Shown here: piece after piece, positions 4,475 to 59,274 of the stretch
Position numbering within the stretch: position 1 is the stretch's first letter
Layout of the letters: each line of letters begins with the position of its first letter
Origin: Collinsella sp.
Lineage (GTDB): Bacteria > Actinomycetota > Coriobacteriia > Coriobacteriales > Coriobacteriaceae
Reading direction: 5' to 3'
NCBI GenBank assembly: GCA_014871665.1
Contig: WGSL01000002.1
Location: 144-64,143 of the forward strand
Length of the DNA stretch: 64,000 nt
Notes under the pieces: generated by a model
Seen by the model: the letters and a program-made list of their open reading frames with translations, nothing else
What the model was told of the DNA's origin: nothing
The model's database searches: none
Made by a program: the position numbers and the translations under genes

Positions 4475-4602
4475 GGAAAGCTCGTCCCGGTTTGAGCGTG
4501 GATTCCGGGTCGCAGTTTCCGCTGGCGGACCCAACCGGAAACTGCAACCCGTTTTTCGACAAAATAATGGGATGCGGTTTCCGCAAGCACGCTCAATCGC
4601 CC
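4475..4602. repeat. D-type intergenic repeat, copy 1 (alternating-orientation GGGTCGCNNTTTCCG units)
   Basis: Units ggaaagctcgtccc / cgggtcgcagtttccg / ccggaaactgcaaccc / gggatgcggtttccg end in caagcacgctcaatcgcc. Homologous blocks occur at 19431-19608 and 22612-22712. Confidence 0.7.
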
Positions 4603-16153: not shown

Positions 16154-16414
16154 ATGTGCCTTGCCGTTCCCGGTAAAGTAGTCAAACGCGACGACGACCT
16201 CAAGGCCACCGTCGACATGATGGGCATCGAGCGCCCCGTGTCGCTGCGACTCGTGCCGACGGCGCAGGTTGGCGACTATATTCTCGTACACGCCGGCTTT
16301 GGCATCCAGATTGTCGACGAGCAGGAAGCACAGGAAACGCTCGAGCTTGTTAATGCCATGTCCGAGCTGGTCGAAGAAGACCAGCTGACCACCAACCCGG
16401 CGGAGGCTTACTAG
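16154..16414 (+). CDS. hypC: Hydrogenase maturation chaperone HypC
   Basis: 86 aa beginning MCLAVPGKV, the diagnostic N-terminal Cys2 motif. Confidence 0.9.
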   Translation: MCLAVPGKVVKRDDDLKATVDMMGIERPVSLRLVPTAQVGDYILVHAGFGIQIVDEQEAQETLELVNAMSELVEEDQLTTNPAEAY

Positions 16415-17526
16415 TGGCGCCCGAGCAGCCGGCGCGCTCCGGTATCGATTTCTCGGCATTCCGCGATTCCAAGCTGGCTCGCGAGCTCATCGAGCGCATT
16501 CATGAGCTTGTCGGCGACCGCACCATCAACCTTATGGAAGTCTGCGGCACGCATACCGTGAGCATCGGGCGCTATGGCTTTCGCTCCATTATGCCGGCCG
16601 GGCTCAAGCTGCTGAGCGGCCCGGGCTGCCCCGTCTGCGTCACCGCCAACCGCGACATCGACCACGCAATCGCGCTCGCCAACATAGACGGCGCCATCAT
16701 CACCACCTTTGGCGACATGATGCGCGTGCCCGGATCATCCACCTCGCTCGCTGCGCAAAAGGCGGCGGGGCGCGATATCCGTATCGTCTATTCCCCGCTC
16801 GACGCGCTCGACATTGCCGAGCAAAACCCTGATCGCCCGGTCATTTTTATGGGCGTGGGCTTTGAGACTACGACGCCCACCATCGCCGCCGCCATCTTGG
16901 AGGCCGAGGCGCTCGGGCTTTTGAACTTCTCGGTCTATTGCGCCCACAAGGCCACGCCGCCGGCGTTGCGCGCCATCGCCAACGACCCCGAGACCACCAT
17001 CGACGGCTTTATCCTGCCGGGCCACGTCGCCACCATCACGGGCTTGGCGCCCTTTAGCTTTTTGGTCGACGAATTCAATACCCCGGGCGTGGTCACGGGA
17101 TTTGAACCGGTCGATATCCTGCAGGGCATCTGCATGCTGGTCCAGATGGTTGTCGAGGACAGGCCGGTGATTGACAACGCCTACCGCCGTGGCGTCAACG
17201 CAGACGGCAATCCCGTGGCGCGCCAGCTGGTCGAGCAGGTGTTTGAGCCGTGCGATACCACATGGCGCGGGCTGGGGCTGATTGCCAACTCGGGCCTTTC
17301 CATCCGCCCCGAGTTCTCGCGCTTTGATGCCCGCGCTCGCTTTGACGTGCCCGTTGAGGCGACGGTCGAGCCGCGCGGGTGCCGCTGCGGCGACGTGCTG
17401 CGCGGGGCCATTGCGCCGAGCAGCTGCCCGCTCTTTGGCCGCACCTGCACGCCCGAGCACCCCGTCGGCCCGTGCATGGTGAGCTCCGAGGGCAGCTGCG
17501 CGGCGTACTACCGCTACCGCGACTAG
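16414..17526 (+). CDS. hypD: Hydrogenase maturation protein HypD
   Basis: 370 aa with a GTG overlapping the hypC stop. Motifs present are CGTHT, GPGCPVCV and GFETT. Confidence 0.93.
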   Translation: MAPEQPARSGIDFSAFRDSKLARELIERIHELVGDRTINLMEVCGTHTVSIGRYGFRSIMPAGLKLLSGPGCPVCVTANRDIDHAIALANIDGAIITTFGDMMRVPGSSTSLAAQKAAGRDIRIVYSPLDALDIAEQNPDRPVIFMGVGFETTTPTIAAAILEAEALGLLNFSVYCAHKATPPALRAIANDPETTIDGFILPGHVATITGLAPFSFLVDEFNTPGVVTGFEPVDILQGICMLVQMVVEDRPVIDNAYRRGVNADGNPVARQLVEQVFEPCDTTWRGLGLIANSGLSIRPEFSRFDARARFDVPVEATVEPRGCRCGDVLRGAIAPSSCPLFGRTCTPEHPVGPCMVSSEGSCAAYYRYRD

Positions 17527-17574
17527 CCCGGGCACACCCGCACACCGGCACCACCCACGATTGGAGTTTTCGAT

Positions 17575-18609
17575 ATGTCCCATAGCGTTACCGATAGCAC
17601 CGTCCTGCTGGGCCACGGCTCCGGCGGCCAGATGATGAAACGCATCATCGATGAGGTCTTTTTGGATGCCTTTGGGTCGCCCGAGCTGCTCGAAGGCAAC
17701 GATGCCGGCGTCGCCGCGCTGCCCGCGAGCGGGCGCATCGCCATGTCGACCGACAGCTTTGTAGTCTCGCCGCAGTTCTTCCCCGGTGGCAACATCGGCC
17801 GCCTCGCCGTGTGCGGAACCGTCAACGACGTCGCGACCTCGGGCGCCAACGTGCGCTACCTGTCGTGCGGCTTCATCCTCGAAGAGGGCTATCCCATGGA
17901 CAAGCTGCGTCAGATCGTGCAGACCATGGCCGAGACGGCGCGCGAGGCGGGCGTGTCCATAATCACCGGCGACACCAAGGTGGTCGAGCGTGGCGGTGCC
18001 GACGGCGTCTACATCAATACCGCCGGCGTGGGCGAGGTACCCGCGGGCGTGGCGCTCAGTGGCGCAAACTGCCGCCCCGGCGACGTCATTCTGGTGTCGG
18101 GCACACTGGGCGACCACGGTATCGCCATCATGAGCCAACGCGAGGGCCTGGCGTTTTCGAGCACGATCGAAAGCGACGCCGCGCCGCTCAACCACCTGAT
18201 TGCCGATGTGCTTGCCGCAGCACCCGACACGCGCTGCTTTCGCGACCCCACGCGCGGTGGCTTGGCGTCCACACTCAACGAGTTTGCCCAGGCCAGCGTC
18301 ATTGCCATGGAGATCGACGAGAATGCTGTGCCCGTGCGTCCCGATGTGCAGGCGGCTTGCGAGATGCTCGGCTATGACGTGCTGCAGGTGGCAAATGAGG
18401 GCAAGATGGTTGCCGTCGTGCCGGCCGAGCAAGCCGATGCCGCGCTGAGCGCCATGCGCGCCGCCCGCTACGGCGAGAATGCCGCCATCATCGGTCGCGT
18501 GCTGCCACTTGCCGAGGGCGCCCATCCCGCCGTGCGCGTGCGCACCGGCTGGGGCTCGACCCGCATCCTCGACATGCTCGTGGGAGAACAGCTGCCGAGG
18601 ATTTGCTAA
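17575..18609 (+). CDS. hypE: Hydrogenase maturation protein HypE
   Basis: 344 aa, AIR-synthase-like, with the C-terminal PRIC motif. Confidence 0.93.
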   Translation: MSHSVTDSTVLLGHGSGGQMMKRIIDEVFLDAFGSPELLEGNDAGVAALPASGRIAMSTDSFVVSPQFFPGGNIGRLAVCGTVNDVATSGANVRYLSCGFILEEGYPMDKLRQIVQTMAETAREAGVSIITGDTKVVERGGADGVYINTAGVGEVPAGVALSGANCRPGDVILVSGTLGDHGIAIMSQREGLAFSSTIESDAAPLNHLIADVLAAAPDTRCFRDPTRGGLASTLNEFAQASVIAMEIDENAVPVRPDVQAACEMLGYDVLQVANEGKMVAVVPAEQADAALSAMRAARYGENAAIIGRVLPLAEGAHPAVRVRTGWGSTRILDMLVGEQLPRIC

Positions 18610-18714
18610 CGACAAAGGCTCAGGGCTATTAAAGATATTCAGATTCCAAACATGCCCGGCACGCATGCCCAGTATCATGGGGTGCGTTTTACAACTCAAG
18701 CGGCAGGAGCACCC

Positions 18715-19383
18715 ATGGCAGCAGCTTTTTCCCATGTGATCTTTGACCTGGACGGCACCATTCTCAACACGCTCGAGGACCTGGCGGCCGCCGGCAACCA
18801 TACCTGCGAGGCGCACGGCTGGCCCACGTTTGCCGTTGACGAGTACCGCTACAAGGTGGGAAACGGCATGCTCAAGCTGGTTGAGCGCTTTATGCCCGCC
18901 GAGTACGCAGGCGACGGCCGCATGTTTGAGCAGACGCTTGCCGAGTTTAGGGCTTACTACGGCGAGCACAAGGAAGACCACACCGCTCCCTATGCCGGCA
19001 CGATCGAGATGCTCGACCGCTTGCGCGCCGCGGGCGTTCAGCTTGCCGTGCTCACTAACAAGGACCACGTCTCGGCGGCTTCGCTTATCGAAAAGTATTT
19101 TGGTTCCAAGCGCTTTGCGCTGGTGCAGGGCCGTGTCGATGCGTTTCCGCCCAAGCCCGAAGCACCCGTCACGCTGCATGTGATGGAAGAGCTAGGCGCC
19201 GACCCGGCGACCACGCTCTACGTAGGCGATTCCAATGTCGATATCCTGACCGGCCACAACGCCGGCCTTAAGAGTGCGGGCGTCAGCTGGGGTTTCCGCG
19301 GCCGCGCAGAGCTGGAAGCCGCCGGCGCCGACTACGTGGTGGACACCCAGGACGAGCTCGCAGCGCTGATCCTGGGCGAGTAA
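18715..19383 (+). CDS. HAD-superfamily phosphatase (phosphoglycolate phosphatase-like)
   Basis: The start is placed at MAAAFSHVIFDLDGTILNT (DxDGT motif). Later motifs are LTNK and GDSNVD. Confidence 0.8.
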   Translation: MAAAFSHVIFDLDGTILNTLEDLAAAGNHTCEAHGWPTFAVDEYRYKVGNGMLKLVERFMPAEYAGDGRMFEQTLAEFRAYYGEHKEDHTAPYAGTIEMLDRLRAAGVQLAVLTNKDHVSAASLIEKYFGSKRFALVQGRVDAFPPKPEAPVTLHVMEELGADPATTLYVGDSNVDILTGHNAGLKSAGVSWGFRGRAELEAAGADYVVDTQDELAALILGE

Positions 19384-19430: not shown

Positions 19431-19915
19431 GCGCATCCCGTTTTGGAGCTCCGGAATGGGATGCGCTTTCCGTTTGAGGCACATCAGGGAAACCGCATCC
19501 CGTTTCAGAGCAATATTCCGGGTCGCACTTTCCGCAACCCACCCCATCCGGAAAATGCGACCCACTATTCGGCCAAAAACCGGGTCGCGGTTTCCCAAGC
19601 ACTCGATGCAACGCTGGCACAAGGAGTGTCCCCAACTGCCGGCAGAAAAGGAACGTCCCCAACTGCCGCCTTCCCAATGACTACTTCAGCGATGGCAACG
19701 TCGCAGGTAAAAGTGCTACTTTAAGCCAACCAAGGCAACGCCGATGCCTTGGCAACGACAGCGAAAGCCCGCCAGAGCGAGCAAGGTGCCTTGAAACAAG
19801 GCGGCATTGACCTTTTGGTCATGCCGCCGAAGTTGAAAGGCAGATTGCCGCTCTGGCGGGCTTGCAGCGTCGAGCAGTTACGGCGTTTGGTAAAACGCCG
19901 TAACGAACTACCGCG
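19431..19915 (+). repeat. Composite intergenic element copy 1 (D module 19431-19608, GGGGAC words 19626-19683, C module 19734-19904)
   Basis: It is homologous block by block to 22612-22972 in the same orientation and fills the convergent gap between the HAD phosphatase and the lipoprotein gene. Confidence 0.8.
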
Positions 19916-19922
19916 TAACCCT

Positions 19923-20480
19923 CTAGCTCAGCATTGCATCCATCATCTCGGAGTTGACGGAGTCGTCGGCAGACCACTCGCCATCGTCGTTGCAGGTGTA
20001 CTTGAAGATAACCGTGGTCTTCCTGGGCTCGGTGGCCTTGGTCACATCGACCATAACCTGACCGGCCATCTTGTACAGCTCGTCATCGGAAGGAACCGTG
20101 TCAAGCGCAGCAACCTTCTCCTGATACTGGGTGGAGAAGTCCTCGACGATCTTGTTCATAGATTTGCATGTAATAGAGACCTCGGCGGTCGCGACACCCT
20201 TGTCCTCGTCGACCGTCACGTCGCCGATCTTGTAGTCAAAGCCCTCAAGATAGGTCTTGGCGTACTCCTTGGGATCGATACCCAGCTGCTCGAACTCGTC
20301 GCCCGAAGCCTCCTCCAGACCAGAGAGGAAGTCGTCGCCACCGTTCTTGACCTCGTCAAACTGCGTCGTAAGATCCTCGGTGATGAGCTCCTCAACCGAA
20401 GGACCTCCACAGCCGGAAAGCACGACCACGCATGCAACCAAGACGGCCATGAGGGGCGCAAGCAGCAGCTTCTTTTTCAT
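19923..20480 (-). CDS. Lipoprotein, unknown function
   Basis: The ATG at 20480 follows GGGAGGAAC. The signal peptide and lipobox read MKKKLLLAPLMAVLVACVVVLSGC. Confidence 0.75.
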   Translation of the reverse strand: MKKKLLLAPLMAVLVACVVVLSGCGGPSVEELITEDLTTQFDEVKNGGDDFLSGLEEASGDEFEQLGIDPKEYAKTYLEGFDYKIGDVTVDEDKGVATAEVSITCKSMNKIVEDFSTQYQEKVAALDTVPSDDELYKMAGQVMVDVTKATEPRKTTVIFKYTCNDDGEWSADDSVNSEMMDAMLS

Positions 20481-20716
20481 GTTGTTCCTCCCAATGAGCG
20501 GCACCGCGCTTCCCGGACGCGGCACACGTTGTAATAAGTAAGCCCATACTATCCACTTATGAACACCCTCGGCAACGCGAAGGCGTGGTCGGTTCGTTTT
20601 AGCGTCCGAACGGTTTGCAAGCCCGCCCAACGTGCAATAAAACGCTTCCCCACGGTGCAATAAAAAAGGTGGCCGGAAAACTCGACCACCCTTGCACATC
20701 CTTTGGACGCCGCAGT

Positions 20717-21253
20717 TTACTTGCGGACGACCTTGACGATGGCGTCACCGGCGGCGACGGCGGACTCTGCCTCAACGGTGAGCTCGACATCGGCAAACTC
20801 GGCGGTGTTGGACACGGCCACGACGACGCAGTCCTTGTAACCGGCAGCGGCGATCTTGGCGCGGTCGATCTTGAGTATGGGCTGGCCAGCCTTCACGACG
20901 TCGTCAGCCTTGACGAAGCCCTCGAAGCCGTCACCGTTCATGTTGACGGTATCGACGCCAACGTGCACCAGAACCTCGATGCCGCTATCGGACTGCAGAC
21001 CCACGGCGTGACCCATGGTGACGGTCACCTTACCGTCGCAGGGAGCGTAGACCAGATCGTCCTCGGGCCACACGGCACAGCCCTTGCCCAGAACCTCGCC
21101 ACCAAAGACGGGATCGGGCACGTCGGCCATCTTGATGACCTTGCCCTTGACGGGCGAGCACAGCACGTCGGCGCCAGCAGAAGCAGAGATGGAGGCCGGA
21201 GCAGCGGCAGCCGCGGGCTCGGCCTTCTTCTTGAACATGTCAAACAGACCCAT
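20717..21253 (-). CDS. Stand-alone PTS EIIA component, glucose family
   Basis: The ATG at 21253 follows AAGAGGAGAA. The EIIA-Glc core is DPVFGGEVLGKGCAV...HAVGLQSDSGIEVLVHVGVDTV (two His). Confidence 0.88.
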   Translation of the reverse strand: MGLFDMFKKKAEPAAAAAPASISASAGADVLCSPVKGKVIKMADVPDPVFGGEVLGKGCAVWPEDDLVYAPCDGKVTVTMGHAVGLQSDSGIEVLVHVGVDTVNMNGDGFEGFVKADDVVKAGQPILKIDRAKIAAAGYKDCVVVAVSNTAEFADVELTVEAESAVAAGDAIVKVVRK

Positions 21254-21302
21254 ACGTTTTCTCCTCTTGATTAAGCGCAACGTTGTGCGCATGCCTACGG
21301 TA

Positions 21303-21331
21303 ATTATAGTGCCAAATGGTTCAAATGCTAA
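21303..21331 (-). promoter_or_regulatory. Candidate sigma70-type promoter of the EIIA gene
   Basis: On the minus strand TTAGCA-17 nt-TATAAT, about 45 nt upstream of the ATG. Confidence 0.4.
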
Positions 21332-21579
21332 GGTGGGGACTCGAATCGCGAGCCCTTCCCGGTAGTGCTCGTGGGACGAGCACCTCCTTTGCATCGCGGG
21401 TCGATAAGCCGAGTATCGTCTGCGCACGGGACGGGCAGAAGCGGGCGTACCAAACCCGATACTTCTTTTCGCTCTCGAGTCCTGCCGCCGCCCCGTCCCT
21501 GACACTTCCTGATACCGACCGAAACGTGCCAGAATAAGCCTGTCCCCTTTTAGCCGGTTTAGCGAATGCGGGAGTTCGC

Positions 21580-22434
21580 ATGGATATCAAACGCAAGATT
21601 ACCGAGGCGCGGGGCCTCACCCCCACCGAGCAACAACTCGGCATTGCAGCCCTTGCCATCGGCGAGGACATCCGCGGGCTTTCTATTAAGGAATTTGCCG
21701 CGCGCACCAACGTTTCTGTTGCGAGCGTGCACCGTTTTTGCAAAAAGCTCGGCCTCGAGGGATTCAAAGATCTCAAGGTCGAGCTCATCCGCCTGGCGAC
21801 CGAGGCAGGAAACCGCCGCGACGTGGACATCAACTTTCCCTTCGACGCTACGTCCACCCCTGCGCAGGTCATGGAGCGCATGGAGGGGCTCTACCAGACC
21901 ACGCTGGCCGAAACGCAGGAGCTGCTCGACCCCACGCAACTTGACCATGCCGCCAAGCTCATCGCGAACGCCCGACAGGTCGACATCTACACGGGCTCGC
22001 ACAACCTCTATCCAGCGGGAATGTTCCGCGACCGCCTGCTCTCGGCCGGCAAGAGCGCCACATGCTACGGCAACATCGAGGCACAGGTGCGCACGGCGCT
22101 TACCTCGGATTCAGACCGCGCGGCGATCGTTATCTCCTACAGCGGCCTTGCGCCCAACCTCAAGGAAATCTTGCCGATCCTCAGCAGCCGGAACGTCCCA
22201 GTCATCGTCATCGGCACGCCCTACTGCGCGCGCATTCACCCCGGCTTTGCCGCCTACCTTACGGTGAGCGATCACGAGAGCATGACGCATCGTATCACGC
22301 AGTTCGCAAGCCACATCGCCGTGCAATACGTACTCGATTCGCTCTACAGCAGCTACTTCGCCAAAGACTACGCCCACTGCTCCGAATTCCTGGAGCGCTC
22401 GTTCCCCCACACCCGCCTCCCGGGACTCAAGTAG
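21580..22434 (+). CDS. RpiR-family transcriptional regulator (HTH_6 + SIS)
   Basis: 284 aa, divergent from the EIIA gene. The stop codon TAG is the first 3 nt of repeat unit B1. Confidence 0.88.
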   Translation: MDIKRKITEARGLTPTEQQLGIAALAIGEDIRGLSIKEFAARTNVSVASVHRFCKKLGLEGFKDLKVELIRLATEAGNRRDVDINFPFDATSTPAQVMERMEGLYQTTLAETQELLDPTQLDHAAKLIANARQVDIYTGSHNLYPAGMFRDRLLSAGKSATCYGNIEAQVRTALTSDSDRAAIVISYSGLAPNLKEILPILSSRNVPVIVIGTPYCARIHPGFAAYLTVSDHESMTHRITQFASHIAVQYVLDSLYSSYFAKDYAHCSEFLERSFPHTRLPGLK

Positions 22435-22460
22435 TCATTTAAGAACATCCCCAATGACTA
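22432..22460 (+). repeat. B-type 29-nt palindromic unit, copy B1
   Basis: TAGTCATTTAAGAACATCCCCAATGACTA is followed by a 14-bp hairpin acggccgacctaat...attaggtcggccgt (22461-22502) and TTT. Confidence 0.85.
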
Positions 22461-22611
22461 ACGGCCGACCTAATAACAACTTCTCGTCATTAGGTCGGCC
22501 GTTTCAACTCTAATAACTATTTATTCCGGAAACTCGTTATTAGAATCTGACACAGGAGGCCAGGCTCACGTGTGGCACCATGGCGAAAAGCAGCTTGCCC
22601 CTGCGCTAACC

Positions 22612-22972
22612 GAATGAGCGTGGATTTTCGGACGTCTATCTAACGAGCGCGGATAATCTCCCACTTTGAGCCCGCACACAGGCCAAAAACGGGAGATTAT
22701 CCACGCTCATTCCTGAGTAGTCATTTATGAACGTCCCCAATGACTAGTCCGGCAACGCCGATGTTTCGGCAACGACAGCGAGCGAGCCGCATTCGGAGCA
22801 AGACGACGCCGCAGGTAGAGAACGGACAGCGAGCGGGTCGCATTTGAGACAAGGTGACGTGAAACGAAAGGGCGCTGACCTTCTGGTCGCGCCCTTGAAG
22901 TTGAACGTCAGATTGTCCAAATGCGGCCCGCACAGCGTCGACCGGTCCGCCGTTCGGCAGAACGGCGGAACC
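22612..22972 (+). repeat. Composite intergenic element copy 2 (D module 22612-22712, B2 unit 22718-22746, C module 22751-22972)
   Basis: It has the same module order and orientation as 19431-19915. The C module has an internal duplication of the GACAGCGA...AGCAAG segment, and its last hairpin abuts the pyrE stop. Confidence 0.8.
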
Positions 22973-23652
22973 TACTTGACTCCGTACTGCTCGTAGTAGG
23001 CGTCGATGGCGGTCTTGAGCTCGTCGTCGATGACAACTTTGCCGTCGATCTCGTGGTTGTAGAGGGTCTCGACGACCTCAGCCATGGAGACGATGCTCGC
23101 GACGGGGAAACCGTACTTGGCCTCGATCTCCTTCTGCGCGGTGGTCACACCGCCCTTGCCGACCTCCATGCGGTTGAGGGACACGATCAGGCCCTTGATC
23201 TCGACATCGGCAGCAGCCTTGACCTTGGGATAGGTCTCGTCGATGGACTTGCCGCTGGTGGTAACGTCCTCGACCATGACCACACGGTCGCCGTCCTTGG
23301 GCTCATAACCCAGCAGGTTGCCCTTATCGGCACCGTGGTCCTTGGCCTCCTTGCGGTCGCAGCAGTACTTGACCTCCTTGCCGTACAGCTCGTGGTAGGC
23401 AATTGCGGTCACGACGGCCAGCGGAATACCCTTGTAGGCCGGTCCAAACAGCACATCAAAGTCGTCGCCAAAGTTATCGTGGATGGCCTGGGCGTAATAC
23501 TCGCCCAGCTTCTTGAGCTGATAGCCCGTCACGTAAGCGCCGGCGTTCATAAAGAACGGGGACTGACGGCCGCTCTTGAGCGTAAAGCTGCCGAACTTAA
23601 GGACGTCGGACTCGACCATAAACTTGATGAACTCTTGCTTGTAAGCCTCCAT
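22972..23652 (-). CDS. pyrE: Orotate phosphoribosyltransferase
   Basis: 226 aa with the PRPP-binding motif VVMVEDVTTSGKS. Confidence 0.93.
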   Translation of the reverse strand: MEAYKQEFIKFMVESDVLKFGSFTLKSGRQSPFFMNAGAYVTGYQLKKLGEYYAQAIHDNFGDDFDVLFGPAYKGIPLAVVTAIAYHELYGKEVKYCCDRKEAKDHGADKGNLLGYEPKDGDRVVMVEDVTTSGKSIDETYPKVKAAADVEIKGLIVSLNRMEVGKGGVTTAQKEIEAKYGFPVASIVSMAEVVETLYNHEIDGKVVIDDELKTAIDAYYEQYGVK

Positions 23653-28744: not shown

Positions 28745-28815
28745 TCGGCCAGGAGTGTCCCCAACTACCACTCATTTAAGTACGTCCCCAATGAGTGGCC
28801 GAAGAGTGTCCCCGG
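28745..28815 (+). repeat. GGGGAC-word cluster including variant unit B3 (28769-28797)
   Basis: aggagtgtccccaactac-CACTCATTTAAGTACGTCCCCAATGAGTG-gccgaagagtgtccccgg. Confidence 0.7.
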
Positions 28816-47165: not shown

Positions 47166-47167
47166 CA

Positions 47168-47196
47168 TAGTCATTGGGGACGTTCTTAAATGACTA
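47168..47196 (-). repeat. B-type 29-nt palindromic unit, copy B4
   Basis: The minus strand reads TAGTCATTTAAGAACGTCCCCAATGACTA, 8 nt after the stop of the NodB-like gene. Confidence 0.85.
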
Positions 47197-55511: not shown

Positions 55512-55594
55512 AGATATATCCCCTCGGTCTATATGGCGTTACAGACATAGAGGATGGTACCAGTTAAAGCAGAGTTAAAGTCAAGTACGGCACC

Positions 55595-55623
55595 TAGTCA
55601 TTGGGAACGTTCTTAAATGACTA
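55595..55623 (-). repeat. B-type 29-nt palindromic unit, copy B5
   Basis: The minus strand reads TAGTCATTTAAGAACGTTCCCAATGACTA. Its first TAG is the stop codon of the FtsX-type permease. Confidence 0.85.
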
Positions 55624-58287
55624 CTCTTGGACTTTGAGGGCTTCGGCCAGACTGACGCGCTTGATGGAGCGCGCGTGCAGCAGCGCCACGACCAGGTAGG
55701 TCACAAAGCCAATGCCGACGCATGCAGCCATAGACCAAGCGGGCACGTAGATCTCGATATTGCCGTTGTAGGCGAGTAGCATCGAGCGGAAGATGGCTGT
55801 TAGCGAGCCGATGATCACGGGCAGGCTCAGCACGAGCGACACCGCCACGCACAGTGTGATCGAGCGGATGTACAGCTGCGAGATCTCGCCATCGCGGTAG
55901 CCAAAGACCTTCATGTAGCTGATCGAACGGGCGCTGTGGTCGATCACCGCCTTGGTCAGCAGGTACATAAACAGCAGGAAGATAAACACCGCGAGCCCGA
56001 TCATCATTCCGATCATTTTGCTCATCATGCCGATGAACTGGTCGCCCACGGCCCGCATGTCGTCGGGCGTGGTGTCGCCGGCAAAGTAGCGAGCATCGAG
56101 GTCGAGCTTCTCGTCGCTCACATAGCCGTTAAAGTAGGCGGCGTCGTTGCCGAACAGCTCGTTAAAGTCGTCGATACTCATATAGATATTCATGTCCGAC
56201 TTGGAGCCCCAGGCACAGTCCTTGCCCGCGTACTCAAGGGAATAATTCTTGCCCTCGTACTTGTCGCGAAGCTTAACCTTCTGCCCCTCGTTCCAGCCAA
56301 ACTTGTCGAGTAGGCCGCCGCCAAAGACGACACGGCCGTCGCCGACGTTGAGGTCTTTCCAATAGCGCGAATCGGGCGAGATGCCGTAGACAGAAATCGT
56401 CTCCTCGCCATTACCATCGCCGCGGTCGTATTGCAGCTGGTAAACGGCATATTTCTCGGTCTGCGCAATCTTGTCTGCACCGTTATCGGTCGTGTTAACC
56501 GGGTGAATGTCGTCGTTGTCGGTGTCGATCTTAGAGGCCTTGTCGATCAGGTCGATAGCCTCGTCGCGGTCACAGCCGAGGGCATCGGCAAGGTCATCGA
56601 GGCGCGCGTAGAGCGCACCCTTCTTGTCCTGGACCTTGGCAAGCGCATCCTGCGCTGCGGTCAGGCTCTCGGCAGACGGAGATGCGGTCGCGGCATCGGC
56701 TGCCGCCTGCGCAGCATCGGCCGCGTCGTCAAGCTCGTCATCGGCATCCTGAGCGGCGGAAAGCAGCGCGCCGTCAACCGACTGCAAGCGCTCGAGTGCC
56801 GACCACTGCTCGCGCTCCTCGGCAGTGCCCTCGAGCTCCAGCGGCGCCTTGAGCGTGTACTGGTGTTCGGCGACCAGGCTTGTCTCGAGGTTGTCCGCAT
56901 AGTGCGTCATCGTGGGCAGAATCGCCAAGCCAAAGAGCAACAGCAGCGAGGCAAACGCAATGCCCACGAAGAGCGTGGCGAAGTTGCCCAGGTTGCGCAG
57001 GAAGATACGCAGGCGGAAGCGGGAAACAAAACCCATGCGCTCCGGCAGCTGCAAGCCGCGCTTGGTGCCCGATTTGCCACTCGCCTCGTGACGAAGGAAC
57101 TGCAACGGCGTCTTGCCCATCTTGCGAAGCAGGCCCACCAGCGTGATGAGGATGAGCGCGGCGGCGGGAACCACGGCGCACTTCACAAAGATCTCCCAGC
57201 TCCAGTACACCTGGAAGGGCGGCAGGCTATACGAACCGTAATAGAGGCTGCGCATGGGCTCGGTAAAGAACACAACGCCGAGCGCAGTGCCCAAAAGCGC
57301 CGCGATCACGCCCACGATGGCGGGAAGCGCAAGGTAGTGCAGCACGATCTCGCGTCGACGATAGCCGCTGGCGAGCAGCGTGCCGATGATGGCGCTCTCC
57401 TCCTCGATGGTGGCGTCGGTAAGGACCACAAAGACGAACGCCATAATCACGATGATGATGTCGAGCAGCGTCATCCACATCATGGAGTCGCCGTCCACGT
57501 CGTCGCGCGCATAACCAATGCCCTGGTTGGAATCGGCATCGATCAGATCGTCCACGCGCGCATCGGCTTCGGTCAGTGCCTCGACCATATCCTGCTCCGC
57601 ATCGGTGCGGTCCGCGGTGGAGAGATCGCGATCGGCAAAGGTGAAGGAGTAGGTGTAGGCGGGTGCGCCGCCGGCGTCCTCAAGCGCGGCAAAGCCGGCG
57701 TCGGTGACCTCGGCCACGCCATAGGTGATGGTGTTCACCGTAAAGTCCGAATTGTTGAGGAACAGCGCCTGGCTATCGGGCTGGGTCATGATGCCGCAGA
57801 TGGTGTAGGTGCGGCCCTCGAGCTCGACCTTATCGCCCACGGCGAGGTCGTTGTTGGTGGCGAAGACGCGGTCGATTGCCACCTCATCGTCCGTCTTGGG
57901 CTGCCTGCCCTCACAGTAGGACGCGATATCGACCTTGGTGCGGTGCGCATAGGTGCGCAGCGTGCGCTTGGTGCCGTCGTCGCCGGCGGTCTTTTTGATG
58001 ATGGCGTCGATGGAGAAATTCTTGTAGAGCGTGACGCCGCCGACGTCGTCGGCCGCATCCTCGGCCGCCTTGAGCTGGTCTTTGGTGGCCTCGAAGGAGG
58101 TGGTCACGCGGCCGTCCTCAATCGTGTACGCATCGCGCATGTCGTCGATAAGGCAGCCGATGGAATGCGCTGCGAGCAAAAAGCCCGAGGTGAGAGCGAT
58201 GCTTCCGCACATAAGCAAAAAGATGCCCAGGTACTTGCCGATATTGCGGCGCAGTTCGCGCGGGAGACGTTTTGCGAGAGGTGTCAT
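55621..58287 (-). CDS. FtsX/MacB-type ABC transporter permease (two FtsX modules)
   Basis: About 890 aa with large extracytoplasmic loops and repeated 4-TM FtsX modules. The start is placed at ATG 58287. Confidence 0.85.
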   Translation of the reverse strand: MTPLAKRLPRELRRNIGKYLGIFLLMCGSIALTSGFLLAAHSIGCLIDDMRDAYTIEDGRVTTSFEATKDQLKAAEDAADDVGGVTLYKNFSIDAIIKKTAGDDGTKRTLRTYAHRTKVDIASYCEGRQPKTDDEVAIDRVFATNNDLAVGDKVELEGRTYTICGIMTQPDSQALFLNNSDFTVNTITYGVAEVTDAGFAALEDAGGAPAYTYSFTFADRDLSTADRTDAEQDMVEALTEADARVDDLIDADSNQGIGYARDDVDGDSMMWMTLLDIIIVIMAFVFVVLTDATIEEESAIIGTLLASGYRRREIVLHYLALPAIVGVIAALLGTALGVVFFTEPMRSLYYGSYSLPPFQVYWSWEIFVKCAVVPAAALILITLVGLLRKMGKTPLQFLRHEASGKSGTKRGLQLPERMGFVSRFRLRIFLRNLGNFATLFVGIAFASLLLLFGLAILPTMTHYADNLETSLVAEHQYTLKAPLELEGTAEEREQWSALERLQSVDGALLSAAQDADDELDDAADAAQAAADAATASPSAESLTAAQDALAKVQDKKGALYARLDDLADALGCDRDEAIDLIDKASKIDTDNDDIHPVNTTDNGADKIAQTEKYAVYQLQYDRGDGNGEETISVYGISPDSRYWKDLNVGDGRVVFGGGLLDKFGWNEGQKVKLRDKYEGKNYSLEYAGKDCAWGSKSDMNIYMSIDDFNELFGNDAAYFNGYVSDEKLDLDARYFAGDTTPDDMRAVGDQFIGMMSKMIGMMIGLAVFIFLLFMYLLTKAVIDHSARSISYMKVFGYRDGEISQLYIRSITLCVAVSLVLSLPVIIGSLTAIFRSMLLAYNGNIEIYVPAWSMAACVGIGFVTYLVVALLHARSIKRVSLAEALKVQE

Positions 58288-59009: not shown

Positions 59010-59104
59010 GCTACCCCCCATTGTTAGCCTATTGCTACTTTTATAGGGTAATAGTAAACCCAAGTGAACTATTTTTGGGCGAGAGTGGGGGTTTGTTTCA
59101 AGAC

Positions 59105-59274
59105 TAGTCGTTGGGGACGTTCTTAAACGACTAGCTGTTGGGGGCGCTCTTTCGCCACCCGGCAGTTAGGGACGTTCCCTTTCTGCCGGCAGCTGGGGAC
59201 AGTCCTTGGCAAGCCGGCGGTTCGGCAAAGACTGTCCCCGATGACTAGTCGTTTAAGTCTGTCCCCAATGAGTA
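59105..59274. repeat. Repeat cluster: inverted B units (B6 59105-59133, B7 59246-59274) flanking GGGGAC-word hairpins
   Basis: tagtcgttggggacgttcttaaacgacta ... ccggcagttagggacgttccctttctgccggcagctggggacag (59159-59202; about 90 percent identical to the rc of 19626-19670) ... tagtcgtttaagtctgtccccaatgagta. Confidence 0.85.

Follow-up and report, generated by a model that had tools for sequence, protein, structure and literature searches.

We identified two copies, here called C1 and C2, of a structured intergenic element in a 64-kb stretch of Collinsella sp. DNA (contig WGSL01000002.1 of assembly GCA_014871665.1, positions 144 to 64,143; hereafter the window). An earlier note, made from the letters of the window alone, had described the pair as a multi-copy structured RNA or DNA element, and this was borne out: at least about 130 further copies were found in about 110 Collinsella/Coriobacteriaceae genomes by a pattern scan and a covariance model. 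C1 and C2 are thus members of a Collinsella-wide family of mosaic extragenic repeats and not a single-copy small RNA (sRNA) gene. The family is dispersed, recombining, constrained in its structure, specific to the genus and anchored antisense to gene 3' ends.

C1 (19730-19904) and C2 (22751-22972) have a common architecture on the + strand, consisting of a small 5' hairpin, an AGCGA block, a rod of ~100 nt, a GCAGCGUCGA block and a 12-bp terminal hairpin, in that order. The coordinates and stems given in the earlier note all matched the sequence on re-checking: the long-range P1 pairing (19765-19779 with 19849-19863 in C1, 22833-22846 with 22918-22931 in C2), the inner hairpin with its bulged T (19800-19828 and 22868-22896) and the terminal hairpins (19877-19904 and 22944-22972). 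The same held for the alternation of conserved and diverged blocks, since a pairwise alignment of C1 and C2 gave 74% column identity, with identical blocks alternating with wholly different ones. Three points of the earlier description needed revision, of which one, the greater length of C2, is described below. The long-range stem and the inner hairpin do pair, but they are not the two helices of a simple rod, which instead has five helical segments with conserved internal loops between them. Likewise, the blocks that had been called single-stranded are conserved, but part of the 5' block forms a small hairpin.

In C1, this hairpin lies in the 5' module M5a (19730..19752), where 8 bp pair in the minimum free energy fold (CCAAGGCA-ACGCCGA-UGCCUUGG); in C2 and, as the family comparison showed, in most other copies only the inner 5 bp pair (GCCGA-UGNN-UYGGC). 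The alignments place the 5' flank CAACGACAGCGA at 19753..19764, next to the rod, which spans 19765..19863 and was defined from the sequence, the fold, the covariance model and pair counts. From base to tip, the C1 rod (subtype A) comprises P1 (19765-79 with 19849-63), a bulged A at 19780, P2 (GCAA/UUGC, 19781-84 with 19845-48), a GG/GA loop, P3 (19787-92 with 19837-42), a GA/GA loop, P4 (AAC/GUU, 19795-97 with 19832-34), an AA/GAA loop, P5a (19800-07 with 19821-28), a bulged U at 19808, P5b (GACC/GGUC, 19809-12 with 19817-20) and a UUUU terminal loop. The aligned 3' flank M3, GCAGCGUCGAGCA (19864..19876), leads to the 12-bp palindromic terminal hairpin of the fold, GUUACGGCGUUU-GGUA-AAACGCCGUAAC (19877..19904), which belongs to the hpA family. 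The region that follows (19905..19925) contains the remnant of a second terminal hairpin, GAACTACCGCGTAAC (19905-19919), recognised from the sequence and from strains L122-L127; it occupies the gap between the C1 hairpin and the stop codon (reverse-complement CTA, 19923-19925) of a convergent lipoprotein-like gene at 19923-20483(-) in the list of open reading frames (ORFs).

C2, also on the + strand, begins with an M5a module (22751..22781) made up of the hairpin GCCGA-UGUU-UCGGC and the flank GGCAACGACAGCGA. It is longer than C1 because of a C2-specific insert (22782..22832), in which pairwise alignment and family comparison distinguished two parts: an extra half-rod, which is the 5' half of an F-like rod in truncated form (GCGAGCCGCATTCGGAGCAAG, 22782-22802), and a further 5' linker, of M5b type and ending in ACAGCGA (22803-22832). 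The rod itself (subtype B, 22833..22931), defined from the sequence, the fold, the covariance model and strand energies, has the same loops and bulged U as that of C1, with P1, P3 and P5a swapped for compensatory sequences and one U·G pair in P1. After the 3' flank M3 ACAGCGUCGACC (22932..22943, placed by sequence and alignment) comes a terminal hairpin of the hpB variant, GGUCCGCCGUUC-GGCA-GAACGGCGG-A-ACC (22944-22972, within the region 22944..22974). Its last base is part of the stop codon (reverse-complement CTA, 22972-22974) of a convergent phosphoribosyltransferase gene, 22972-23652(-), so that hairpin and stop codon overlap in C2. The genes on either side of each copy converge: C1 is flanked by the HAD hydrolase gene that belongs to a hypD-hypE-HAD run (+) and by the lipoprotein-like gene (-), and C2 by an RpiR-family gene (+) and the phosphoribosyltransferase gene (-).

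Within the window, the motif GAAGTTGAANGNCAGATTG and the 31-nt 5' block each matched at C1 and C2 only, against chance expectations of 0.11 and 0.00, respectively. A covariance model (R1), built from 15 representatives of the family, scored 142.6 bits at C1 and 135.0 bits at C2 on the + strand; when it was run over the 64 kb with filters off there was no third copy, the next best score being 19.7 bits. Relative to dinucleotide shuffles, the + strand of C1 folded at -117.3 kcal/mol (z -14.0) and its - strand at -112.9 kcal/mol (z -10.2), and the corresponding values for C2 were -123.2 kcal/mol (z -8.3) and -116.1 kcal/mol (z -6.2).

To describe the family, we scanned one genome per species with an exact pattern that is specific to the main subtypes, so the taxonomic range and copy numbers are lower bounds. 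The scan returned at least 120 stretches, and among the matches listed 117 came from genomes titled Collinsella, Coriobacteriaceae or "uncultured bacterium". The match in a genome titled Oscillospiraceae (L102) is a true copy and the genome was probably mis-binned. Matches in Bacillus (L038), Aminipila (L055) and, from a separate scan, a viral contig (L121) all fail the covariance model and are chance pattern matches. A blastn search of a phage collection gave no match to the element, and on this and on the failure of the lone viral hit we rejected a phage origin. Extrapolation from the 4 copies in 250 kb of another genome (see below) and the 2 in the 64 kb of the window gives ~35-70 copies per genome.

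The unit is ~170-220 nt long, with a variable 5' module (M5a or M5b), and at least nine rod subtypes (A-H, I, G1, G2) have stems that are unrelated to one another and loops and flanks that are shared. Across the family the rod reads, from base to tip, P1, bulged A, P2 GCAA/UUGC, GG/GA, P3 of 6 bp, GA/GA, P4 AAC/GUU, the AA/GAA loop, P5a of 8 bp, bulged U, P5b GACC/GGUC and the loop UUNU. P1 is 14-15 bp long, or up to 20 bp where it is continuous with P2 (subtypes C, E and F). Subtypes A, B, C, D, E and F have no sequence in common in P1, P3 or P5a, and what is kept across subtypes are the purine-rich loops GG/GA, GA/GA and AA/GAA, the bulged U, the apical GACC-UUNU-GGUC hairpin and the flanks. 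Of the latter, the rod-adjacent AGCGA is the most conserved motif, retained even in the diverged subtypes G1 and G2, both of which R1 recovered in the loci. P4 and P5 are fused in G1, G2 has another central domain (CGAAAGAGGAG-hairpin-CGACGARUGAG), and in subtypes H and I, likewise recovered with R1, P4 has covaried from AAC/GUU to AAU/AUU. The terminal hairpin is a family in itself, with 127 instances, 12-bp stems and 73 distinct sequences that include the compensatory variants GCGG/CCGC, GGCG/CGCC and GCCG/CGGC.

Rfam 15 gave no hits anywhere in the window at gathering thresholds, and at E<=10 there was no meaningful match between 19400 and 23100, so the element is not explained by a known Rfam family. 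The best overlaps with C1 were sobemo_FSE (19.3 bits, - strand, E 1.7) and RCNMV_TE_DR1 (14.0 bits, + strand, E 9.1), and a scan of twelve loci with other subtypes found RNase P RNA and a tRNA only. We therefore rejected identity with Collinsella-1 (RF01700), 6S RNA, the hammerhead and other ribozymes, and RNAs of the HEARO/omega-RNA type. The likeness of CUGAUGAG/GAAAC in subtypes D or G2 to a hammerhead was also set aside, since there is no matching arrangement of stems and no Rfam hit. A small ORF within the rod was discarded as well: the translations of subtypes A and B are alike only at the conserved nucleotides, and the stems alter residues. Our literature search found no description of the element; a catalogue of structured RNAs of the human microbiome (PMC8040213) has Collinsella-only candidates without sequences in its text, so one or more fragments could be among them. 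The family thus appears to be previously undescribed, although dispersed structured extragenic repeats are a known kind. The family stands out in that its stems turn over completely around purine-rich loops that do not change, and that this occurs together with a modular, mosaic composition and a strict, antisense placement abutting gene ends.

The earlier note had proposed that the stems are maintained by compensatory changes, and larger alignments showed strong covariation. In an alignment of 15 sequences, 99.0% of cells were paired and 22 of the 39 pairs had changed on both sides, compared to 27-40% pairing in slid controls; none of 500 shuffles reached the observed value for four of the five measures, and 15 of 500 did so for the fifth, further pair types. 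With 31 sequences aligned to the model, 97.8% of cells were paired (slid controls, 29-39%), 29 of the 39 pairs had changed on both sides and none of 500 shuffles reached the observed value for any of the five measures. A model-fitted alignment is biased towards the modelled structure, but the MAFFT alignment of the 15 sequences and RNAalifold concur with it; an independent RNAalifold run on the 31-sequence alignment returned the same structure, with 41 pairs, 31 of them with compensatory changes. Compensatory changes are also common in the hairpins of REPINs (PMC3116915). Since mobile hairpin DNA of this type covaries too, covariation alone is no proof of RNA function.

Several asymmetries single out one strand. 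The + strand was the stabler one in all 12 subtype representatives, by 2.7-17.6 kcal/mol, and the folds of these representatives contained 19 G·U pairs on the + strand vs. a single one on the - strand. Over all distinct copies, cells of G·U type numbered 57 vs. 25 of A·C type. On the - strand, the covariance model scored C1 at 37.6 and C2 at 31.4 bits, ~100 bits below the + strand, and it is on the + strand that the internal loops are purine-rich. We conclude that selection for pairing acts on the strand that is + in the window and antisense to the abutted gene. At co-directional genes such as rpoC, map and tyrS, this strand is both the template of transcription and the leading-strand template of replication.

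The placement of the copies relative to genes is also constrained. Gene calls in the loci were made with a heuristic based on GC content at third codon positions (GC3), except for one record with annotation from the Prokaryotic Genome Annotation Pipeline (PGAP). Where a neighbor could be called (110 instances), the downstream gene was convergent in 103, and its stop codon lay 55-63 nt past the CAGATTG motif at the foot of the terminal hairpin. In 22 of 72 distinct junctions the stop codon shared the hairpin's last base and in 38 more it was 0-7 nt away, an offset of -1 to +7 in 60 of the 72. At one locus (L087, 2840-3323), a G2-type copy on the opposite strand abuts the 3' end of the RNase P RNA (280 bits in Rfam), and therefore the element is anchored to the end of a gene, whether or not that end is a stop codon. 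Every abutted stop codon is TAA or TAG, but these two make up 96% of Collinsella stops, so this is uninformative and we dropped the idea of a target specificity for TA or the stop codon. Among 498 confident ORFs in L001-L120 and the window, TGA accounted for 4% of stops (18), TAG for 56% and TAA for 40%; such scarcity of TGA is unusual for a genome of ~60% GC, and prfB, encoding release factor 2 (RF2), is still annotated in C. aerofaciens NZ_OY725717.1.

The 97 fully flanked instances represent only about 38 gene contexts. These are housekeeping genes, including those for the Ile-, Val-, Lys- and Tyr-tRNA synthetases, release factor 1 (RF1), QueA, PyrE, ProB, HtpG, 3-deoxy-D-arabino-heptulosonate 7-phosphate (DAHP) synthase, an LCP protein and several regulators. 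An unbiased census of an annotated stretch of NZ_OY725717.1, 250 kb long, gave 4 copies, all antisense and between co-directional genes, that touch the stops of tyrS, rpoC, map and cysS. With ileS, valS, lysS, tyrS, cysS, prfA, queA, map, rpoC and rnpB among the abutted genes, the set may be enriched for core genes related to translation and tRNA. Orientation followed the adjacent gene (103/110) more strictly than it followed the local strand majority (75/104) or GC skew (68/104), and we accordingly rejected replication as what sets it. The sites are orthologously conserved across about 110 genomes. Apart from the two neighbors of C1 and C2, no gene of the window serves as a context in any other genome. 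In the window and the loci there were no empty sites, and context genes were occupied whenever they were seen, except for an inversion at larE in L035 (430-1100). There, larE is inverted relative to the subtype-C element and ~15 nt resembling the former larE 3' end remain by the terminal hairpin, a sign that the rearrangement had its breakpoint at the boundary of the element.

The copies evolve in concert by recombination with each other. Between species, the rod switches between subtypes A and B within one orthologous context, and the hairpin variant and junction nucleotides vary too. At the C1 site, contigs encoding an identical enzyme IIA protein of the phosphotransferase system (PTS EIIA) carried a subtype A rod, an A/G1 chimera, or a subtype H or G1-like rod. 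At the C2 site, nine of ten strains with identical PyrE had the same element even though the upstream gene differed (RpiR or Fic), and the tenth had a G1 rod and a different upstream neighborhood. As this was the only swap and it came with a different neighborhood, ordinary homologous recombination between lineages suffices to explain it, and we rejected hot-swapping by site-specific recombination. We also found chimeric rods (L003, L122), mosaics of a half-rod and a full rod (C2, L018, L023, L030, L099, L116), tandem M3-hairpin duplications (L095, L119) and at least 12 contigs that begin or end within the element. Some subtypes are specific to a locus (C at larE, D at valS, E at one uncharacterised gene and I at map), which suggests that structure-preserving evolution may proceed in situ beside the replacement of copies.

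We favor the interpretation, at a probability of about 0.45, that the family is a gene-end boundary element comparable to REP, BIME and TRIT repeats, in which a folded single strand would be recognised by some putative factor. The palindromic hairpin would cap the 3' end of the abutted gene's mRNA and could do so in either orientation, and the strand-specific rod would fold in nucleic acid of + polarity; it is because selection acts on the + strand that we take the relevant molecule to be of this polarity. Its most plausible source would be transcripts that approach the 3' end of the gene from the opposite side, such as read-through from a convergent neighbor or divergent transcripts from the next promoter. 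A putative trans-acting factor, for which the invariant asymmetric loops argue, may then recognise the conserved loops and stop or process such transcripts at the gene boundary.

The closest precedent is TRIT, a genus-restricted, conserved hairpin of Mycobacterium with 147 copies in a very narrow position at stop codons, for which a dedicated binding factor was postulated on the strength of its sequence conservation (PMC3152330). Both are genus-restricted palindromic hairpins, conserved in sequence and structure and present in the order of 10^2 copies, that overlap or abut the stop codon within a narrow range, and neither has a classical U-tract. TRIT-like behavior is displayed here by the terminal hairpin (127 instances, offset -1 to +7 in 60/72), as a functional analogy only: the sequences are unrelated, and the two hosts are placed in separate classes of actinobacteria. 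TRIT, moreover, is a single and largely bidirectional hairpin centered at about -8 inside the ORF, whereas the Collinsella unit adds a strand-specific rod of ~100 nt, two flanks, a mosaic 5' module and a fixed antisense orientation.

REP, BIME and REPIN sequences (PMC3116915) are likewise dispersed extragenic hairpins found at gene 3' ends or between convergent genes, mosaic with other repeat modules, subject to compensatory hairpin changes and inherited vertically at conserved sites, with new copies inserting into or beside old ones. In REPINs, however, two inverted REPs form a symmetric doublet that has conserved termini and is associated with a RAYT gene, while the Collinsella element conserves asymmetric loops and non-palindromic flanks, has variable stems and is fixed in orientation. 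With no symmetric REP doublet, and with flanks (AGCGA ... GCAGCGUCGA) that are direct and arms that are variable, it is not itself a REP or REPIN; within 250 kb of NZ_OY725717.1 no RAYT link was seen, the only Y1-type genes being two identical copies of an IS200-like tnpA.

Intrinsic terminators also form stable GC-rich hairpins at gene ends, but the Collinsella element has no U-tract, is far larger and has conserved loops and family-wide sequence conservation. A scan for consensus terminators found none at C1 or C2 on either strand and did find a canonical one, with an 11-bp stem and a T-run, after the PTS EIIA gene at 20665-20693(-), so we rejected identity with a canonical intrinsic terminator. 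Past the rod, terminator-like signals of a hairpin followed by U residues were present on the gene-sense strand in 56 and on the element strand in 22 of 105 cases, for example a U7 terminator after the rpoC copy and one of -27.5 kcal/mol in L006. The element therefore appears to lie inside the 3' untranslated region (UTR) of the gene.

A number of observations weigh against a gene-end boundary element of this kind. A U-tract is missing after both hairpins, whichever strand is read (the sequence there has no T runs), and Collinsella does use canonical terminators, as at 20665-20693(-); mycobacterial RNA polymerase is reported (PMC3993855) to need a U-tract. Conserved internal loops would be superfluous in a simple terminator. 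We identified no partner protein, and of the promoters for a + strand RNA that we looked for at C1, C2 and family copies, none was conserved. Part of the stem covariation could arise without selection on RNA, through template-switch repair of quasi-palindromes. Finally, the gene-sense terminators beyond the rod imply that the abundant transcript should be minus-sense, and the minus-sense versions of subtypes C, E, F and G2 carry A·C mismatches. This conflict, between a folding strand that is antisense and an abundant transcript expected to be minus-sense, is the main unexplained feature of the family.

A more specific proposal, which we regard as speculative and rather doubtful, is that the rods are recognition sites on the antisense strand for a dedicated putative factor that would terminate or destroy antisense and divergent transcripts at the 3' boundaries of ~40 core genes, among them prfA, rpoC, map, rnpB and five or more for aminoacyl-tRNA synthetases. 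A second form of the proposal would make them attC- or retron-like sites at which folded single-stranded DNA or cDNA recombines or is primed, with no link to a known integron or retron. The pairing of traits seen here is rare, riboswitch-grade covariation around invariant loops being joined to the genomic behavior of a selfish repeat, and it poses a paradox in that the strand selected for folding is antisense to the highly expressed gene that it touches. Canonical terminators are scarce in Actinomycetota, and a solution to the paradox could reveal that transcription units in this phylum are marked off in a new manner; it may also account for the equally puzzling TRIT hairpins that mycobacteria have locked to stop codons, or bring to light a new mechanism of mobility specific to single strands. 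On the practical side, Collinsella is an abundant and medically studied gut genus whose current annotation ignores roughly 40 such elements per genome, and since the elements break short-read assemblies they are relevant to the quality of metagenome-assembled genomes.

The alternative that survives best, although we consider it unlikely, is non-autonomous mobile DNA of the kind represented by miniature inverted-repeat transposable elements (MITEs), REPINs or palindrome-associated transposable elements (PATEs). An enzyme encoded in trans, for example an HUH/Y1 transposase or a tyrosine recombinase, would act on the + strand as folded, single-stranded DNA, which it would recognise by the conserved loops and flanks; it would copy or move the unit to positions just past stop codons, and any effect on transcription would be a by-product. 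Much of the genomic behavior described above agrees with this: the multiplicity of copies, near-identical ones at unrelated genes, assemblies that break inside the element, and nested or partial copies, M3-hairpin tandems (L095, L119) and chimeras. Native-looking canonical terminators lie on the far side of the element, as would result from its insertion between stop codon and terminator, extrahelical bases and strand-specific folding are typical of single-stranded recombination substrates, IS200/IS605 tnpA genes are present in Collinsella, and REPINs show the same compensatory pattern (PMC3116915). The sites, however, are kept orthologously across about 110 genomes with one near-empty site only, which is an inversion (L035), and locus-specific subtypes (C at larE, D at valS, E and I) look like the products of evolution in situ.

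Structural features of known mobile elements are also missing. There are no terminal inverted repeats, and the CAGCG direct repeat that flanks the rod shows no co-variation between left and right, so it was rejected as a target-site duplication. Consistent termini are lacking, the 5' boundary is mosaic and the junction nucleotides by the stop codon are variable, on which grounds we rejected a MITE identity. BOX, RUP, ERIC and Correia/NEMIS are modular, MITE-like repeats of streptococci, enterobacteria and Neisseria that are co-transcribed with neighboring genes and can affect mRNA stability or processing. They share with the Collinsella element a modular build, a length of ~100-200 nt and long RNA hairpins, but have terminal inverted repeats, often target-site duplications, a variable orientation and no strict abutment to stop codons.

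Nor did the insertion sequences (IS) at hand supply a source for the element. At co-directional genes such as rpoC, map and tyrS, leading-strand synthesis uses the + strand as its template, which makes this the wrong strand for IS200/IS605, since transposition of this type, as established for IS608, uses the other strand. The resident IS200-like element is ~750 bp long, encodes a 152-aa TnpA and, as the alignment of its two identical copies (L143 37700-38500 and L144 48290-49050, at about 422.8 kb and 533.4 kb of NZ_OY725717.1) showed, has end hairpins of its own, GAACCACCCTTAAAAAGGGTGGTT and CCACCCGCGTAGCGGGTGG. These share nothing with the C element, and on this ground we rejected an IS200/IS605-derived PATE; one of the two copies sits between a birA-like gene and rpsJ. 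The tyrS-site copy in NZ_OY725717.1 lies 75 nt downstream of an IS110-family transposase gene, but the boundaries of that IS fall within a neighboring REP-like unit (GAACGTCC|...|CCAACGACTA) and not in the element, and the tyrS-site element occurs without any IS in 10 other genomes. We thus rejected a bridge or seek RNA of IS110/IS1111.

We judged it improbable that the family consists of trans-acting sRNAs of ~170-200 nt that would be read from the + strand, stop at the terminal hairpin and use their loops and flanks (CAACGACAGCGA, GCAGCGUCGA) to bind a protein in the manner of a sponge or to pair with targets. Selection of both the pairing and the purine-rich loops on the + strand would be expected of such RNAs, as would the conservation of unpaired blocks across subtypes, and C1 has an extended -10-like sequence with a TGn element, TGCTACTTT (19714-19722), just upstream. 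This motif is not kept in orthologous copies, however, which read TGCCACTTT or TGGCGCTTG, and promoter searches at C2 and in the family found none. The 5' end is mosaic and variable (M5a, M5b and truncated halves), there is no U-tract terminator, a trans-acting RNA gives no rationale for rigid abutment to gene 3' ends, and about 40 near-identical genes would be unprecedented.

Very improbable, in our estimate, is a folded single-strand recombination site analogous to attC and used by a site-specific recombinase. attC sites have a paired 7-bp R box, an L box with extrahelical bases, and cassette arrays next to intI. Like them, the Collinsella element keeps structure over sequence, folds on one strand, has extrahelical bases (the bulged U and bulged A) and an AAC/GTT triplet (P4) beside unpaired spacers, with variable apical and basal stems, and it comes directly after the stop codon of an ORF to which the strand that folds is antisense; chimeric rods could be the products of recombination. 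But P4 is only 3 bp long, flanked by G·A and able to covary to AAU/AUU (as in H and I), and there is no 7-bp RYYYAAC/GTTRRRY box. The units are dispersed at core housekeeping genes and not in cassette arrays, M3 and the terminal hairpin separate the rod from the stop codon, and no integrase was seen in the annotated 250 kb of NZ_OY725717.1. On these grounds we rejected an attC identity. The least credible of the alternatives is neutral palindromic junk with stems kept by hairpin-templated (template-switch) repair and gene conversion: template switching can perfect long quasi-palindromes and recombination between copies is evident, but the process would erase loops and bulges, which instead are invariant across sequence-unrelated subtypes, and it sits poorly with the 19:1 asymmetry of G·U vs. 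A·C in subtype representatives and with a fixed orientation and position relative to genes.

Other repeats lie close to the element. A REP-like palindromic unit, AGTAGTCATTTATGAACGTCCCCAATGACTA (22716..22746, + strand), stands immediately 5' of C2, and at many loci such a unit precedes the element in the same orientation. It belongs to a second repeat family of REP-like palindromes, TAGTC(A/G)TTTAAGAACGTCCCCAATGACTA and a related GGAACGTCCCCAAGTGCC form, usually located just 5' of the C element. The window has units of this family on the + strand at 22430-22460, 22716-22746, 28767-28797 and 59244-59274, and inverted ones at 47166-47196, 55592-55624 and 59102-59134. In NZ_OY725717.1 (L142, 22880-24290), the IS110-family element lies inside a REP-like unit at GAACGTCC|CCAA, and its right end, GACGGTTGACAAAACTATAGGAAC, recurs at the end of L122 and upstream in L100. 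This arrangement points to a putative REP-targeting IS110, perhaps in the manner of IS621.

Upstream of C1, a third family of intergenic hairpin repeats (ATTCCGGGTCGCAGTTTCCG...) has copies at 4502-4582 and 19515-19595 with 75% identity, and an 88-nt, perfect-looking hairpin at 19436-19523 gave only spurious hits to microRNA models in Rfam. An 814-aa minus-strand ORF (16735-19179) has no Pfam match and overlaps hypD (16414-17526), a hypE-like gene (17575-18609) and the HAD hydrolase gene (18652-19383), all three of them real genes on the plus strand; the ORF itself is spurious, an antisense ORF of high-GC DNA. Upstream of C2, a MITE-like unit (22611-22712) is bounded by the inverted repeat GAATGAGCGTGGAT...ATCCACGCTCATTC, and it is within this repeat that the synteny break (RpiR or Fic neighbor) among the strains with identical PyrE falls.

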